Below, piece by piece: positions 4,398 through 15,737 of a DNA stretch of 37,559 nucleotides. The notes beneath the pieces were generated by a model. It was not told where the DNA came from. It ran no database searches and saw only the letters and a program-made list of their open reading frames with translations. Source of the DNA: Candidatus Aenigmatarchaeota archaeon (GTDB taxonomy: Archaea; Aenigmatarchaeota; Aenigmatarchaeia; QMZP01); contig JAFCEM010000001.1 of the NCBI GenBank assembly GCA_017609145.1, positions 1 through 37,559 of the forward strand, read 5' to 3'. The position numbers were made by a program, and so were the translations under genes. Numbering within the stretch: the stretch's first letter is position 1; every line of letters starts with the position of its first letter.

Positions 4398-5645
4398 ATG
4401 GTTACGGTTGAGTGTCTGGGGAGTGGAAGGGAGGTAGGAAGGTCCGCAATCTCGGTGGTGTCGGGAAATGACAAATTCATACTTGATTACGGGCTTGATG
4501 TGCAGGACATGAGTGTGCCGATGAACCCCGGTAGGGACATAAAAGGCGTGTTCCTTTCACATGCGCACCTTGACCACTCAGGGCATGCCCCGAACCTTTA
4601 CAGGCAGGGCTACGCGAACAGTATCTATGCAACACCCACAACATTCGGCCTTACCTCATTACTGCTCAGGGATTCGATAAAGGTGCAGGAAAGAAAGGGC
4701 ATTCAGCCGCTTTTCATGCTTCCGGACCTGAAAAAAATGGAGCGCATGAAGAAAATACTGGACATAGGCAGGAGCGTAAAGCTTGGCGGCACGACCATAA
4801 GCTTCTTTGATGCAGGTCACGTTCCCGGAAGCTGTATGACTTTGATTGAAATCGACGGAAAGAGGATACTCTACACAGGAGACGTGAAATTCATAGATAC
4901 ATACCTTATGAAGGCAGGCCATACGGACTTCCGTGACATAGATGTGCTGATAACAGAATCAACATATTCGTACAAAAATCACCCGGATCGGGGCATGCTG
5001 GCAGACAAGCTCAGGGAAATAGCTCAACACACTGTTTATAATAACGGCACACTGCTTCTGCCAGCGTTTGCAGTCGGCAGGACACAGGAACTTCTCATAA
5101 TGCTTTATGACCTTGGTTTTGAGATTTATCTTGATGGGATGGGCATAGCAGCGAGCAGGATAATCATGGGTTTCCCGAAAAGCGTGAGAAGCCCAAAGAA
5201 GCTGGAGAAGGCCTTTGGCACGGCGCGCAAAATAAGGAACCAAAGACAAAGAGAAAACGCAGTCAAAAAACCCTGCATAATAATAACAACATCCGGTATG
5301 CTCAATGGCGGCCCCGTTGGTTTTTACGTGCCCCAATTACACAAGAGGGAGGACTGCACAATGGTGATGAGCGGCTATCAGGTCGAGGGTACGGTCGGAA
5401 GGAAGCTTCTCGATACTGGCAGATACGTGAATGAAGGCCTTGACCTGAAGCTGAAAATGAAGACGGAATTCATGGACCTCAGCGCACACTGCGGCAGGGA
5501 CGGGATAATAAACTTCATAAAGAAAACAAAACCCAAAAAAACGGTCCTTGTTCATGGGGACAGGACAGTGGAATTCGCCAAAGAACTGAAAGGCATGGGA
5601 TTCGATGCCGTTGCCCCGAAGAACGGGGACAAGATAGCCGTTTAG
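4398..5645 (+). CDS. Metallo-beta-lactamase / beta-CASP family ribonuclease (aCPSF2 / RNase J-like)
   Basis: 415 aa. It has the MBL motif SHAHLDHSG, then DAGHVPGS, the beta-CASP region ...ESTYS... and a C-terminal VHGD. Confidence 0.8.
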   Translation: MVTVECLGSGREVGRSAISVVSGNDKFILDYGLDVQDMSVPMNPGRDIKGVFLSHAHLDHSGHAPNLYRQGYANSIYATPTTFGLTSLLLRDSIKVQERKGIQPLFMLPDLKKMERMKKILDIGRSVKLGGTTISFFDAGHVPGSCMTLIEIDGKRILYTGDVKFIDTYLMKAGHTDFRDIDVLITESTYSYKNHPDRGMLADKLREIAQHTVYNNGTLLLPAFAVGRTQELLIMLYDLGFEIYLDGMGIAASRIIMGFPKSVRSPKKLEKAFGTARKIRNQRQRENAVKKPCIIITTSGMLNGGPVGFYVPQLHKREDCTMVMSGYQVEGTVGRKLLDTGRYVNEGLDLKLKMKTEFMDLSAHCGRDGIINFIKKTKPKKTVLVHGDRTVEFAKELKGMGFDAVAPKNGDKIAV

Positions 5646-7079: not shown

Positions 7080-7151
7080 TGGACCAGGCGAGATTCGAAC
7101 TCGCAGCCTCCTGCATGCCGAGCAGGCGATCTACCATTGATCTACTGGCCC
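7080..7151 (-). tRNA. tRNA-Ala (anticodon GGC), no intron, no encoded CCA
   Basis: Reverse complement: GGGCCAG-TA-GATC-AATGGTA-GATC-G-CCTGC-TCGGCAT-GCAGG-AGGCT-GCGAG-TTCGAAT-CTCGC-CTGGTCC-A. This is a full cloverleaf with the G3:U70 alanine identity pair. The anticodon loop reads TC-GGC-AT, so position 33 is C, not U. Confidence 0.85.
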
Positions 7152-7152
7152 A

Positions 7153-7296
7153 TGGGCCGAGCCAGAATTGAACTGGCGATCTCCGCCTTGTAAGGGCGGC
7201 GTCATGCTTCTAGGAACCTCTTACAAGTTCTTTCCCGGGGTTTCTTGCGTAAGCCCTTGGGCTCCTGTAAGAAAGGCCTCACTAGACCACCGGCCC
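7153..7296 (-). tRNA. tRNA-Val (anticodon UAC) with an insert (intron) of about 69 nt in the D-loop
   Basis: Reverse complement starts GGGCCGG-TG-GTCT-AGTGAGGCC... and ends ...A-TGAC-G-CCGCC-CTTACAA-GGCGG-AGATC-GCCAG-TTCAATT-CTGGC-TCGGCCC-A. The acceptor, anticodon and T arms are perfect. The two D-stem halves (GTCT / TGAC) are separated by about 80 nt where 8-11 nt would be normal. Confidence 0.8.
7206..7274 (-). other. Putative non-canonical tRNA intron in the D-loop of tRNA-Val (boundaries approximate)
   Basis: Removing about 69 nt leaves the D-loop AGTGAGGCCA and a 75-nt tRNA. The insert contains a 7-bp helix TCTTACA/TGTAAGA (7266-7272 with 7219-7225), a GCCC-AA-GGGC hairpin and a CCCGGG palindrome. 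I could not place an exact bulge-helix-bulge by eye. Confidence 0.55.
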
Positions 7297-7320: not shown

Positions 7321-7330
7321 ATTTATAAAT
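7321..7330 (-). promoter_or_regulatory. TATA-box candidate for the tRNA-Val/tRNA-Ala transcription unit
   Basis: ATTTATAAAT is centred about 29 nt upstream of the tRNA-Val 5' end (7296). tRNA-Ala follows tRNA-Val after a single nucleotide, so the two are probably one transcript. Confidence 0.45.
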
Positions 7331-7749: not shown

Positions 7750-9093
7750 CTAAATCCCGCTCAGGCCGAAATGCTTTGCCAATTTTGCAAGCGGCCCACG
7801 CCTGAAGCCCTTTCCGCCCTTCGTGAGCTTCATTACCTTCTGCATCTGCTTGTAGTATTTGAGCAGCTCACGCACAGCAGACTCTGACGTGCCAGAGCCT
7901 CTGGCTATTCGCTTGACCCTGCCTGCTTTTATTATCTCTGGAGTCTCCCTCTCTTTCGGTGTCATGCTATCGATTATGTACTTCCATTTCTTCATCTTGT
8001 CTTCTTGGACATCGAGGAGCCCCTTGGGTATCTTCATACCCGAAACACCCGGTATCATGTCCATAACCTTGGACAGCGAGCCCATCTTCTGCATTGAGCC
8101 AATCTGCTCCTGGAAATCAACCATTGTGAACTTGCCCTCAAGAAGCCGTTTTGCCTTGTCTTCGTCCGGCTCTATGCCAGCGCTCTTTGCCTTCTCAAGG
8201 AGCCCCTGCAGGTCGCCGTACCCTATCATCCTTGAAACGAACCTTTTCGGGTCATAGCTTTCCATATCCTCGGGCTTCTCGCCCGTTCCGATGAACTTGA
8301 CTGTTGCGCCTGAAACACTCGCTGCTGCAAGCGCGCCGCCACCTCTTGCCGTGCCGTCGAGTTTGGTAACAACGATGCCTGTTATGCCGACAAGCTTGTT
8401 GAACTCCTCTGCCTGCTTTCTGGCTGTCTGGCCTATGTCTGCCGGAATCACAAGTAGCACCTCGTCAGGCTTGATTACCTTCCCGAGATTCTTCAGCTCC
8501 CTAGCAAGCTCTTTATCCAGAGCATCTCTTCCTGCGGAATCGAAAATCAGAACCTCTTCCTTTGCATCGCGTAGCGCATTCTTTGCTATGTCCTCGGGCT
8601 TCCTGCCCTTTACGTAAACATTCACACCAACCTTCCTCCCGACCTGCTTAAGCTGTGCCTGGGCGGCTGCCCTGTGGGTGTCGCATGCCACGAGCGCTGG
8701 ATTGACACCTCTTGTCTTGAACCATTTCCCTATCTTCCCTGCACTGGTTGTCTTTCCAGAACCGAAAAGCCCTATGAGCATTACCTTCTGTGGCTTGAGC
8801 GCCACCTCACCCTTGCGGGCTCCAAGGAAACCCACCATCTCATCGTAGAGCATCTTTACGAAATATTCTTTCAGTGTAAGCCCTGCGGGTGGCTTTGCCC
8901 CAAGTATTTTCTTCTTTATCTTCTCTGACAGCTCGGCAACCATCTCCACATCCACGTCTGCCTGAAGAAGTACCCTCTGCAGGTCTTTTACTATGGTCTC
9001 GACCGCCTTCCTGTCGACCACGCTAAGACCCGCTATCTTCCTGAATGTCTGCTTTAGTGATTTTCCAAAGTCCATGTAATCTTTATGTAGCAT
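7750..9093 (-). CDS. srp54: Signal recognition particle protein SRP54
   Basis: 447 aa. It has an N domain, the G domain GLFGSGKTTSAGK...DTHRAAA...DSAGR...TKLDG, and a Met-rich M domain (SMQKMGSLSKVMDMIPG). The second Met (ATG at 9075, MDFGKSL...) gives a more canonical N-terminus and lies about 24 nt from a TTTATTTAAA box at 9094-9103. Confidence 0.93.
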   Translation of the reverse strand: MLHKDYMDFGKSLKQTFRKIAGLSVVDRKAVETIVKDLQRVLLQADVDVEMVAELSEKIKKKILGAKPPAGLTLKEYFVKMLYDEMVGFLGARKGEVALKPQKVMLIGLFGSGKTTSAGKIGKWFKTRGVNPALVACDTHRAAAQAQLKQVGRKVGVNVYVKGRKPEDIAKNALRDAKEEVLIFDSAGRDALDKELARELKNLGKVIKPDEVLLVIPADIGQTARKQAEEFNKLVGITGIVVTKLDGTARGGGALAAASVSGATVKFIGTGEKPEDMESYDPKRFVSRMIGYGDLQGLLEKAKSAGIEPDEDKAKRLLEGKFTMVDFQEQIGSMQKMGSLSKVMDMIPGVSGMKIPKGLLDVQEDKMKKWKYIIDSMTPKERETPEIIKAGRVKRIARGSGTSESAVRELLKYYKQMQKVMKLTKGGKGFRRGPLAKLAKHFGLSGI

Positions 9094-13037: not shown

Positions 13038-15737
13038 CTATATCACTTCAATTCCGGGTTTTCCGGGCTCTGCCCTGCGCGCCTTGGCGCTGCCCGATTT
13101 TCCGGCGTCGATTATGTTTACCCTGCAGCCGAGCTGGGACTCGAGGAACTCCCCTGAATCGCTAAGAGCTGCGAATTCCTCACGTGAGCTGAGTATGTCC
13201 CTGAGCTTTGCTGTCTCTGTCTTGAGCATGGACTCGATGAATCCGGCTGCGTGCTTGCCTTCTTTCCTCACTTCAGGGTTCTTCATCAGCGCTGACATCA
13301 GTGTTTTCCTATCCTTTGCCCCGGATTTCTTTATTATTTCCCTGCGTACAGCGTGTTTCCATTCCGGAGCCACATAGATGTTTATTTCCTTAGGTTTCTT
13401 CCCGACCAGTTTTATTATCTCCCTAGTATCTGCAAGCGTCTGCTCCGTCAGCTTCTCTGCCATGTCAAGCTTCCTGTCTATCAGCTTCTCGTTCGCCTTT
13501 GGCCATCTCTCAACAGAGATGAAATCCTTGCCCGTTTTGTTGTAGCCAAGTCTTTCCCACATCTCTTCGGCTATGTGCGGGGTCAGCGGCGACAAAAGCA
13601 GCAATAAAGTTTTTACAGCCTCGTCAAGCGCCTTTCTGTGCGGGTTGCTCAGATATCTTTTGATTCTGCTGGCGAAACCCATGAGCTCTCCCACAGCAAG
13701 ATTGAACCTCAGGTTCTCCATGTGCTCAGTGAATGTCTTTATTGTCCTGTGGATTCTGCTTCTCATCTGCTTGTCAGCCGTCTCCAGAGTGCCCTTCCTT
13801 GCATTCTTCTTCCTGGCTTCATCAACAAGAGCGCAGACCCTGTTCAGGAACTTATGGGCACCGACAACACCCTTGTCGCTCCACTCAAGCTGGCTCTCCG
13901 GGCTTGACACGAAGAGAAGGAACAGCCTTGCCGTATCGATTCCGTACTTCTTTGATATATCCTCCTGCGTCACGATATTACCGAAGCTCTTGCTCATCTT
14001 GTGACCGTCCTTGTAGACAATGCCCTGGTTGAACAGCCTCTGGAAGGGCTCGTCAAAGTCAAGCAGACCCATATCTTTGAGCGCCATTGTGAAGAAGCGT
14101 GCATACATAAGGTGCATGACTGCATGCTCAACTCCGCCTATGTACAGGTCAACAGGCATCCAGCTTTTTACTGCTTTCCTTTCAAATCCCGCAGACTTCT
14201 CTTTTGGTGAGCAGAATCTCAGGAAGTACCAACTTGAGTCAACGAATGTGTCCATGGTGTCGGTCTCCCTTTTTGCCCTGCCACCGCATTTGGGGCATTT
14301 GGTCTCGACGAAGTTCTTCATATCATTCAGTGGGTTGCCGTGGCCGGTGAATTTCACGTTCGTGGGCAGGATTACGGGCAAATCCTTTTCGGGCACGGGT
14401 ACTATGCCGCATTTCTCACAGTAGACAACCGGTATCGGCGTGCCCCAGTACCTCTGCCTTGATATGAGCCAGTCCCTGAGCTTGTACTGAACGGTCTTTT
14501 TCCCGCAGCCCTTCTTCTCAAGGAATCTCGTTATATCGTCAATGGCGTCGATGCTACCCGAGCCGTCGAACTGCCCGGAGTTTATCATTATACCCGGCTC
14601 TGTGAACGCCCTGCTCATGGTCTTCTCGTCAATGTCATAGCTGTGTGGCTTTATGACAAGCCTTATGGGTATCTTGTACTTCTTTGCGAACATGAAGTCC
14701 CTCTGGTCGTGCGCCGGTACTGCGATTATCGCGCCCGTGCCGTATTCAAAAAGCACGAAGTTTGCTATGTATATCGGTATCCTCTCCTTCGTGACGGGAT
14801 TAACTGCATAGCGACCTATGAACATGCCCTCCTTCTCACTATTCTCGGATGTCCTTTCGAATTTCTCCTGCAGCACGACCCTGTTCACAAAGCTCTTTAC
14901 CTTTGCTTCATATTGGGTGCCCTTTATGAGTTCCATGACATCCGGATGCTCGGGCGCATAGACCAGGAATGTTATTCCGAAGAACGTATCAGGTCTCGTA
15001 GTGAAGACCTGCATCTTTTTATCAGAACCCTCAATAGGGAACTCTATTATGGTGCCCTCGCTCCTGCCAATCCAGTTCTCCTGCATGAGTTTGACGTTTT
15101 CGGGCCAGTCAATCTTCTTCAGACCTTTCAGTAGCCTCTCGGCGTACTTGGTTATCTTCAGGAACCACTGCTCAAGATTCTTTATCTCGACAGCGCTTCC
15201 GCACCTCCAGCACTTCCCCTTCTCAACCTGCTCGTTTGCGAGCACTGTCCTGCATTTTGGGCACCAGTTCACGGGCGCGAGCTTCTTGTACGCGAGCCCC
15301 TTCTTCAGCATCCGCAGGAAGAACCACTGGTTCCATCTGTAATACTCCGGATAGCACGTGGATATTTCCCTGCTCCAGTCGTAACTAAGCCCCAGCGCTT
15401 TTTGGTTCTTCTTTATACCCGCAATTGCCTTCTCGGTGTAAGCCTTTGGGTGGGTCTTGTTCTTTATTGCGGCGTTTTCCGCGGGCAACCCGAATGCATC
15501 GTAGCCCATTGGGTAGAGAACATTGAATCCCTGCATCCTCCTGAAGCGCGCGAAGCTGTCGCCCATGGCATAGTTGCGCACGTGTCCCATGTGCAGCCCG
15601 CTCGCGGAAGGGTATGGGAACATCTCGAGAACGTAGCATTTTTTCTTCTTCACACTTTCATTTGCGCGGAAGATTCCTGCCTTTTCCCACCTCTCCTGCC
15701 ATTTCTTCTCCATCTTGCCAAAATCAGTTCCTTTCAT
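13038..15737 (-). CDS. leuS: Leucyl-tRNA synthetase, bacterial-type architecture
   Basis: 899 aa with the HMGH and KMSKS class I motifs. The N-terminal ~230 aa are collinear with my memory of E. coli LeuS: FPYPS..GLHMGHVRNY, YDAFGLPAE, SYDWSREI, PEYYRWNQWFF, VNWCP...TVLANEQV, CWRC, QWFLKIT.YA, NWIGRSEG. Confidence 0.92.
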   Translation of the reverse strand: MKGTDFGKMEKKWQERWEKAGIFRANESVKKKKCYVLEMFPYPSASGLHMGHVRNYAMGDSFARFRRMQGFNVLYPMGYDAFGLPAENAAIKNKTHPKAYTEKAIAGIKKNQKALGLSYDWSREISTCYPEYYRWNQWFFLRMLKKGLAYKKLAPVNWCPKCRTVLANEQVEKGKCWRCGSAVEIKNLEQWFLKITKYAERLLKGLKKIDWPENVKLMQENWIGRSEGTIIEFPIEGSDKKMQVFTTRPDTFFGITFLVYAPEHPDVMELIKGTQYEAKVKSFVNRVVLQEKFERTSENSEKEGMFIGRYAVNPVTKERIPIYIANFVLFEYGTGAIIAVPAHDQRDFMFAKKYKIPIRLVIKPHSYDIDEKTMSRAFTEPGIMINSGQFDGSGSIDAIDDITRFLEKKGCGKKTVQYKLRDWLISRQRYWGTPIPVVYCEKCGIVPVPEKDLPVILPTNVKFTGHGNPLNDMKNFVETKCPKCGGRAKRETDTMDTFVDSSWYFLRFCSPKEKSAGFERKAVKSWMPVDLYIGGVEHAVMHLMYARFFTMALKDMGLLDFDEPFQRLFNQGIVYKDGHKMSKSFGNIVTQEDISKKYGIDTARLFLLFVSSPESQLEWSDKGVVGAHKFLNRVCALVDEARKKNARKGTLETADKQMRSRIHRTIKTFTEHMENLRFNLAVGELMGFASRIKRYLSNPHRKALDEAVKTLLLLLSPLTPHIAEEMWERLGYNKTGKDFISVERWPKANEKLIDRKLDMAEKLTEQTLADTREIIKLVGKKPKEINIYVAPEWKHAVRREIIKKSGAKDRKTLMSALMKNPEVRKEGKHAAGFIESMLKTETAKLRDILSSREEFAALSDSGEFLESQLGCRVNIIDAGKSGSAKARRAEPGKPGIEVI

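Follow-up and report, generated by a model that had tools for sequence, protein, structure and literature searches.

The 37,559-nt stretch of DNA analysed here (the window) very probably carries, at positions 7296-7153 of the reverse strand, a functional tRNA-Val(UAC) gene whose single 72-nt intron splits the invariant D-loop pair G18/G19 and belongs to a multicopy intron family restricted to one order. Judged from its sequence, the locus is a real tRNA-Val gene of a tiny DPANN archaeon. In the pathway that we propose, the gene would be transcribed together with tRNA-Ala(GGC) from its own TATA box, and in the precursor C12-G15 would pair with a CUAG near the 3' end of the intron to form the 4-bp central helix of a relaxed bulge-helix-bulge (BHB) motif. 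The broad-specificity epsilon2-type endonuclease encoded in the genome would then cut after G17 (UG/A) and before G90 (AA/G), and RtcB would join the exons, giving a mature 72-nt tRNA-Val(UAC) with the D-loop AGUGGCA, to which CCA would be added later. The intron family would have spread among tRNA D-loop and T-loop sites, and a 16S rRNA gene would have acquired it in one relative.

A tRNA-Val(UAC) gene with a large insert in its D-loop

The gene and its anticodon lie on the reverse strand as follows.

7153-7296, reverse strand: tRNA-Val(UAC) gene including the intron, 144 nt, CCA not encoded (sequence; ARAGORN on the spliced form; partial Rfam tRNA match)
7190-7192, reverse strand: anticodon UAC (sequence; ARAGORN)

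The reverse complement of 7153-7296 reads, element by element, GGGCCGG UG GUCU AGUG (72 nt) GCA UGAC G CCGCC CUUACAA GGCGG AGAUC GCCAG UUCAAUU CUGGC UCGGCCC A. The acceptor, anticodon and T arms are present and intact, as the original prediction had described them: the acceptor stem has 7 bp, with G7-U66 as its last pair, the anticodon and T stems have 5 bp each, and the variable loop has 5 nt. Together with the anticodon UAC and the discriminator A73, these features identify the gene as tRNA-Val. The D-stem halves, predicted to lie about 80 nt apart, are GUCU at RNA nt 10-13 and UGAC at RNA nt 93-96, with 79 nt between them. The large D-loop insert that separates them is likewise as predicted, except that its size is 72 nt rather than about 69 nt.

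Standard annotation does not recover this gene. When run on the window, ARAGORN reported the neighbouring tRNA-Ala and missed tRNA-Val(UAC), and the Rfam tRNA model, for which the cut-off is 29 bits, gave only a partial match of 26.3 bits to the 3' two-thirds of the gene (positions 8-63, at 7161-7212). The form spliced in silico was called tRNA-Val(tac) by ARAGORN, and the predicted fold of the precursor was more stable than those of its shuffles (z = -2.8). The original prediction had allowed that the locus might be a degraded tRNA remnant. Removal of the intron leaves a clean 72-nt cloverleaf that is identical at 60-66 of 72 positions (83-92%) to the intronless Val(UAC) genes of five related genera, which argues against such a remnant. 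No second Val(UAC) gene was found in the assembly, which is 88% complete, so that another copy could be unassembled.

A relaxed BHB motif predicts both splice sites

Splice sites were sought by an exhaustive BHB scan that required a 4-bp helix, one 3-nt bulge on each strand and a flanking helix of at least 2 bp. An intron following gene nt 17 lies between the invariant G18 and G19, and cleavage was placed after the second nucleotide of each bulge. A single strict register yielded a 72-nt tRNA; its exon 1 runs to nt 17, and its exon 2 begins at nt 90. The original prediction had left the exact splice sites, and the choice between one intron and two, to an enumeration of BHB motifs; that enumeration defines one relaxed motif that sets both sites, and its unique register points to one intron. 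The resulting features are listed below.

7280-7296, reverse strand: exon 1, RNA nt 1-17, comprising the acceptor 5' strand, U8 G9, D-stem GUCU and D-loop A14 G15 U16 G18 (BHB scan; paralogues and orthologues share the exon 1 end)
7208-7279, reverse strand: predicted intron, 72 nt, RNA nt 18-89, between D-loop G18 and G19 (unique strict BHB register; homologous intron in genome G015)
7153-7207, reverse strand: exon 2, RNA nt 90-144, comprising G19 C20 A21, UGAC, the anticodon arm, variable loop, T arm, acceptor 3' strand and A73
7282-7285, reverse strand: 5' strand of the BHB central helix, CUAG, RNA nt 12-15, including D-stem C12 and U13 (BHB scan; partner RNA nt 84-87)
7210-7213, reverse strand: 3' strand of the BHB central helix, CUAG, RNA nt 84-87, inside the intron (BHB scan)
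7279-7281, reverse strand: 5' bulge, U16 G17 / A18, predicted cut 7280/7279 (BHB scan)
7207-7209, reverse strand: 3' bulge, A88 A89 / G90, predicted cut 7208/7207 (BHB scan)

The core of the motif consists of C12-G15 paired with C84-G87 between two 3-nt bulges on opposite strands. Its inner helix has two contiguous base pairs (G19-C83 and G20-U82) and, past a 1-nt bulge, continues through C21-G80 and C22-G79 into the long intron stem. The in-register outer helix of a strict hBHBh' motif, which has both flanking helices, is absent: U11 faces C91, and only beyond a 2x3 internal loop is there pairing, between G7-G9 and C91-U93. We therefore regard the motif as relaxed and HBh'-like, a class that is cut by (alpha-beta)2 and epsilon2 enzymes (PMC3239211). 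As C12 and U13 of the D-stem are used in the central helix, the D-arm could not be folded at cleavage. The predicted mature tRNA-Val(UAC) has 72 nt and a D-loop of AGUGGCA (A14 G15 U16 G18 / G19 C20 A21). Its exon junction would join GGUCUAGUG to GCAUGACGCC, the D-arm part reading GUCUAGUG-GCAUGAC, and U8, A14, G18G19, A21, the T-loop UUCAAUU and A73 are all retained in the spliced product.

The BHB conformer is not the minimum-energy fold. In the latter (-57.6 kcal/mol), U11-G33 are zipped into a nearly continuous helix with 1-2-nt bulges and no 3-nt bulges, and the BHB conformer lies 6.6 kcal/mol above it, so that the endonuclease would have to capture or induce the cleavable form. Since 202 of 5000 shuffled inserts (4%) also offered an acceptable BHB, the motif alone is only modestly significant. 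ARAGORN was tried as a judge of splice sites and discarded: it accepted 142 of 238 in-silico splices and is thus uninformative between junctions. What makes the splice assignment of Val(UAC) firm is recurrence of the motif in homologous and paralogous genes. We accordingly predict that G18 and G19 are separated by one relaxed-BHB intron of 72 nt.

Introns at the same site in paralogues and relatives

The same architecture, with exon 1 ending at nt 17, was found in four other genes, namely Val(GAC) and Lys(CUU) of this genome and Val(CAC) and Glu(UUC) of the related genus represented by G015. Together with the BHB register, these introns support the non-canonical D-loop intron that had been predicted in tRNA-Val(UAC). 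In Val(GAC), at about 12596-12480 on the reverse strand of contig C28, nt 17 is followed by a D-loop intron of 62 nt, and the BHB (CUAG/CUAG) is cleaner, with an inner helix of 5 bp and an outer helix of 4 bp. This gene lies directly downstream of an intronless Val(CAC) gene (C28 12720-12647). The predicted spliced D-loop of Val(GAC), AGUUGGUUA, is identical to that of this intronless Val(CAC), which validates the cleavage rule within this genome.

In the Val(CAC) gene of G015, a 72-nt intron at the same site is 79% identical to the Val(UAC) intron (59/75 aligned columns). Its central helix is CUAG/CUGG, the 3' strand being CUGG, so that the helix is kept through a G-U pair, and the G18-G19 pair results only from cuts at G17/A18 and AA/G. 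The D-loop intron of Glu(UUC) in G015 has a BHB inner helix of 13 bp. Lys(CUU), at 8237-8550 on the forward strand of contig C16, has an 81-nt D-loop intron with a strict BHB (UCAG/CUGA) in addition to a long T-loop intron. Exact and degenerate pattern scans of genome and metagenome contigs for additional introns with this 5' junction gave no organism other than that of G015.

The predicted 7-nt D-loop is 1-3 nt shorter than that of every intronless orthologue examined; its pattern, AGYGGNA, is also that of the neighbouring tRNA-Gly (AGCGGUA). Val(UAC) genes of other relatives appear to be interrupted elsewhere. In six related genomes (L005, L006, L011, L016, L017 and L019) the gene is preserved up to and including the T-loop (GTTCAAA/GTTCGAA) and diverges beyond it, a pattern that suggests T-loop introns at about 58/59-59/60. 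The Val(UAC) genes of L006 and L007 have D-loop introns of 31-34 nt at about 21/22, a site different from that used in this genome.

Genes and signals around tRNA-Val(UAC)

Three tRNA genes (Gly, Val and Ala) are packed end to end in this part of the window, the upstream tRNA-Gly having three introns. The features that adjoin tRNA-Val are the following.

7080-7151, reverse strand: tRNA-Ala(GGC) (ARAGORN; Rfam tRNA model, 66.9 bits)
7322-7329, reverse strand: TATA-like box TTTATAAA, centred about 29 nt upstream of G1 (direct sequence reading)

The only tRNA of the window that ARAGORN and Rfam detected is tRNA-Ala(GGC), which is separated from A73 of tRNA-Val by a 1-nt spacer and is presumably co-transcribed with it. 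The TATA-like box begins immediately 3' of the discriminator base of tRNA-Gly and has the right spacing from the Val gene, and we infer that it is the promoter of the Val gene. Given the position of this box and the 1-nt spacer, Val and Ala look like a small transcription unit of their own. In one relative, an intronless Val(UAC) gene is likewise followed by a tRNA-Ala(GGC)-like gene. Elsewhere in the window, a leucyl-tRNA synthetase gene (LeuRS, 899 aa, 13038-15737, reverse strand) has its top archaeal match in an Aenigmatarchaeota MAG; a few DPANN MAGs aside, its many best matches, at 45-55% identity, are in bacterial MAGs.

The genome encodes an epsilon2-type endonuclease and an RNA ligase

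A tRNA splicing endonuclease, EndA, of the three-unit epsilon2 type (402 aa) is encoded at C73:3586-4794 on the forward strand (L101:853-2061). It aligned end to end with the epsilon2 EndA of ARMAN-2 (PDB 4FZ2; E=6e-103, 348 bits, query 13-402, chain 12-387), and Pfam identified tRNA_int_endo twice and tRNA_int_endo_N once. The catalytic triad Y244/H258/K289 corresponds to Y236, H251 and K282 of 4FZ2, and the lysine of the ARMAN-type specific loop (ASL), K164 (GIYKQER), corresponds to K161 (GTYKVSEH). By sequence, then, this is a single polypeptide with aligned alphaN, alpha and betaC units and conserved key residues, as in epsilon2-type EndA. The ASL lysine is required for cutting both strict and relaxed motifs (PMC3488258), and epsilon2-type EndA cleaves relaxed motifs at non-canonical positions in vitro (PMC3239211, PMC3488258). 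Orthologues of the enzyme were found at 60-69% identity in about 30 Candidatus Aenigmatarchaeota MAGs and at 43-45% identity in Micrarchaeota. The RNA ligase RtcB is encoded on contig C98 (527 bits). The gene content thus includes both an endonuclease of the relaxed-motif-cutting type and an RNA ligase, and the Val(UAC) intron would most likely be processed by these two enzymes.

In the whole genome (G000, 88% complete), only 14 Rfam tRNA matches reached the gathering score, and ARAGORN found about eight uninterrupted tRNAs. Most tRNA genes of this organism therefore appear to be disrupted and invisible to default annotation; if most are interrupted in a similar manner, the cell must splice such inserts. 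The literature reports that we found, as far as their accessible text extends, place epsilon2 enzymes only in Micrarchaeum/ARMAN-1/2 and Mancarchaeum (PMC5829648). Our literature search found no description of tRNA introns in Aenigmatarchaeota.

A multicopy intron family with a conserved structured 5' module

Two structured elements were delimited within the Val(UAC) intron.

7240-7279, reverse strand: 5' module conserved in the intron family, (UG)AGGCCUUUCUUACAGGAGCC-CAAG-GGCUUAC..., with the P2 hairpin at RNA nt 33-46 (nhmmer; covariance model R1, 47.5 bits here)
7219-7272, reverse strand: long intron stem P1, RNA nt 25-33 with 70-78, plus the region that it encloses (minimum-energy fold; RNAalifold)

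The 7-bp helix UCUUACA/UGUAAGA noticed in the original prediction (RNA nt 25-31 with 72-78) is borne out and extends to the 9 bp of P1, and homologous introns carry compensatory changes in it; across five homologous introns of the 72-nt subfamily, RNAalifold found such changes in 6 of 18 pairs of P1. Two short GC hairpins had also been proposed. The first (GGAGCC-CAAG-GGCUU) is conserved, whereas the second (CCCCGGG) is unable to fold alone. The P2 hairpin, GGAG-NN/NN-CUUC, is 96% paired over 14 copies; its covariation is modest, with distal compensatory changes and one pair changed on both sides. Neither the intron nor the module matched an Rfam family, either at the gathering threshold or at E<=10, and no C or D boxes were seen by eye in the Val(UAC) intron.

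Thirteen copies of the 5' module were detected in this genome by nhmmer, at least 10 of them in or beside tRNA genes. Their hosts are D-loop introns (Val, Lys), T-loop introns (Gly, Lys, Asp-like and others) and sites elsewhere. In Lys(CUU) both the D-loop and the T-loop intron carry the module, the latter being 91% identical to the long T-loop intron of the window tRNA-Gly. That tRNA-Gly intron also carries the module and has near-identical copies on contigs C16, C28, C86 and C95. A covariance model found the module in 27 of the 47 genomes of this family (18 of 27 genera), with 1-16 copies each, and not in the other 20; among 121 genomes sampled across the phylum, only families of the same order contained it. 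Hosts in relatives are Val, Glu, Pro and Lys genes and 16S rRNA. The introns are thus closely similar, occur in different tRNA species and at different positions, and behave as a transposed intron family. Besides D-loops and T-loops in tRNA genes, they occupy a 16S rRNA gene and one or more mRNA leaders.

The 16S rRNA case is on contig C15 of genome G017 (L009:1333-2697, reverse strand), where 639 Rfam model positions of the 3' half of the gene are spread over 1365 nt, pointing to several inserts; one insert of about 77 nt, near the GAAUACG region, carries the module. At three further loci in the genome under study (C65, reverse strand, about 4490-4400; C60, reverse strand, about 10720-10620; C21, forward strand, about 5323-5420), a 13-14-nt copy of a tRNA 5' end, through the D-stem, is fused to the module and lies 85-110 nt upstream of a complete gene (Leu-UAA, Arg-UCG and Ile-like, respectively). 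The direct repeat of the C65 fragment is exact. Such fragments might have been left behind by intron insertion or recombination, or they might serve as alternative 5' exons. Split tRNAs joined by trans-splicing were considered for the C60, C21 and C65 fragments and rejected, as a search for the 3' acceptor strand gave only noise in coding sequence. A comparable layout of fragment, module and gene occurs at a protein-coding gene on C98 (reverse strand, about 2830-2690): a direct repeat of about 55 nt lies on either side of a 33-nt module core and includes the ribosome-binding region and the first seven codons of a zinc-ribbon ORF (MPSKCTRCGKVHPDN...). RtcB is encoded about 1 kb away on the same contig. 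We also considered whether GGUUCCUAG and exon GGUCUAG mark a target-site duplication at the Val locus, and rejected this, since only the palindrome CUAG is common to the two and GGUUC belongs to the intron-family module.

The 40-nt module, UGAG(S)CCUUUYUUACAGGAG-NN-loop-NN-CUUCC, might be a structured RNA element under selection, the defining part of a mobile BHB-intron family confined to a single Aenigmatarchaeota order, a proposal that we make tentatively. It could be what a mechanism of intron mobility recognises or needs for insertion, with 5' pieces of the target gene left duplicated in the process, or else it could function as an excised (circular) RNA.

Alternative explanations

Our reading of the locus, a functional gene with a single 72-nt intron, was weighed against three others. 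The gene could be real and spliced otherwise, either through two introns of about 62 nt and 9 nt (CCUAGAAGC) that would leave the D-loop AGUGGUUA, or through a single intron with its 5' site after G20 that would leave AGUGAGGCA. The intronless Val(UAC) genes of relatives do have AGUGGUUA, GGUU is present at RNA nt 79-82, AGUGAGGCA is also a D-loop of canonical length, and ARAGORN tolerates both splices. Neither set of junctions, however, had BHB support in the scan, and GGUUC comes from the 3' module that the intron family conserves (AAGGUUCACCC) and not from an exon; both models were rejected on these grounds. A 9-nt BHB intron would moreover be too short for a helix and bulges, and the homologous G015 intron admits only the G17/A18 and AA/G cuts. 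We consider such alternative splicing unlikely. In a further reading, a tRNA-Val gene was inactivated by a small, repeated, MITE-like insert that is never removed from the RNA. The insert does come from a multicopy repeat family, copies of which also lie beside duplicated gene fragments in this genome, as is typical of DNA-level mobile elements, and the BHB is relaxed and energetically disfavoured. Against this, the exon features show no decay, a promoter-like TATA box precedes the gene, which is in a tight operon with tRNA-Ala, and the BHB register lands exactly on a canonical D-loop here and in four other genes. This is also the sole Val(UAC) found, and if it were inactive, GUA codons would be left to wobble by another isoacceptor; most tRNA genes here are similarly interrupted, only 14 Rfam matches passing the cut-off. 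A pseudogene is thus very unlikely.

It is conceivable, if improbable, that the intron RNA itself is the selected product, as a stable circular or protein-binding RNA, with the tRNA gene as its host. A C/D-box guide RNA resides in the tRNA-Trp intron of Haloferax. In keeping with selection on the RNA, the 5' module and P2 are conserved over 18 genera and in different host genes, with compensatory changes, and intron identity between genera is about 80% where protein identity is 60-70%, which would be unexpected under neutrality. The intron has, however, neither a C nor a D box nor an Rfam match, and covariation in P2 is modest, with one pair changed on both sides. The distribution is also patchy (20 of 47 family genomes are without the module) and the copy number varies from 1 to 16, which a selfish, recently spreading element fits better than an essential RNA. 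We favour a functional tRNA-Val(UAC) gene interrupted by one member of the intron family.

Comparison with known systems

D-loop introns of this protein-spliced type are a known kind and ordinary for such archaea. As the sole Val(UAC) found, missed by both ARAGORN and the Rfam tRNA model, the gene exemplifies why DPANN genomes appear to lack tRNAs. Our analysis also adds Aenigmatarchaeota to the archaea with an epsilon2-type endonuclease and numerous non-canonical introns, which carries the proposal that broad-specificity EndA co-evolved with disrupted tRNA genes past Micrarchaeota and TACK archaea. The more interesting part is the order-restricted intron family: its conserved structured module and the duplicated gene fragments offer a way into the unsolved problem of BHB-intron mobility.

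Known D-loop BHB introns include those of Methanopyrus kandleri tRNA-Glu(UUC) at 20b/21, which has a relaxed HBh' motif, and Aeropyrum pernix tRNA-Thr(UGU) (PMC5829648). Like them, the Val(UAC) intron lies within the D-loop, has a relaxed BHB lacking one flanking helix, would be removed by a protein endonuclease rather than by self-splicing and requires the D-stem to unfold in part. Unlike them, it follows gene nt 17, separating G18 from G19, is as long as 72 nt, belongs to a repeated family and is found in a DPANN Aenigmatarchaeote with an epsilon2 rather than an (alpha-beta)2 enzyme. The closest parallel for the enzyme is ARMAN-2 (Candidatus Micrarchaeum), which has the same EndA architecture, triad and ASL lysine (PMC3239211, PMC3488258; PDB 4FZ2), together with a small genome and many tRNA genes interrupted at non-canonical sites, including the T-loop. 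ARMAN-2 belongs to Micrarchaeota, whereas the phylum here is Aenigmatarchaeota, and its published examples are T-loop (59/60, 53/54) and 37/38 introns of 13-25 nt, compared with a 72-nt D-loop intron in Val(UAC).

The gene fragments recall Caldiarchaeum subterraneum, in which a tRNA-Thr 5' fragment (tRNA-Thr-F) lies beside a mobile element (PMC3293823). At C65, C60 and C21, though not at the Val locus, a 5' fragment ending in intron sequence is similarly found upstream of a complete gene; here the gap between fragment and gene is only about 85-110 nt, with no recombinase-bearing element in between. The intron family as a whole parallels the intron transposition described for Thermoproteales, where, according to summaries of Fujishima et al. 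2010 (PMC4090602, PMC4033280), very similar introns occur in different tRNAs and at different positions. Such a distribution implies that introns spread after the tRNA genes had diverged. The lineage and the intron sequences are unrelated to ours; in the Aenigmatarchaeota family, a defined 40-nt structured 5' module is common to the copies, and one copy lies in a 16S rRNA gene.
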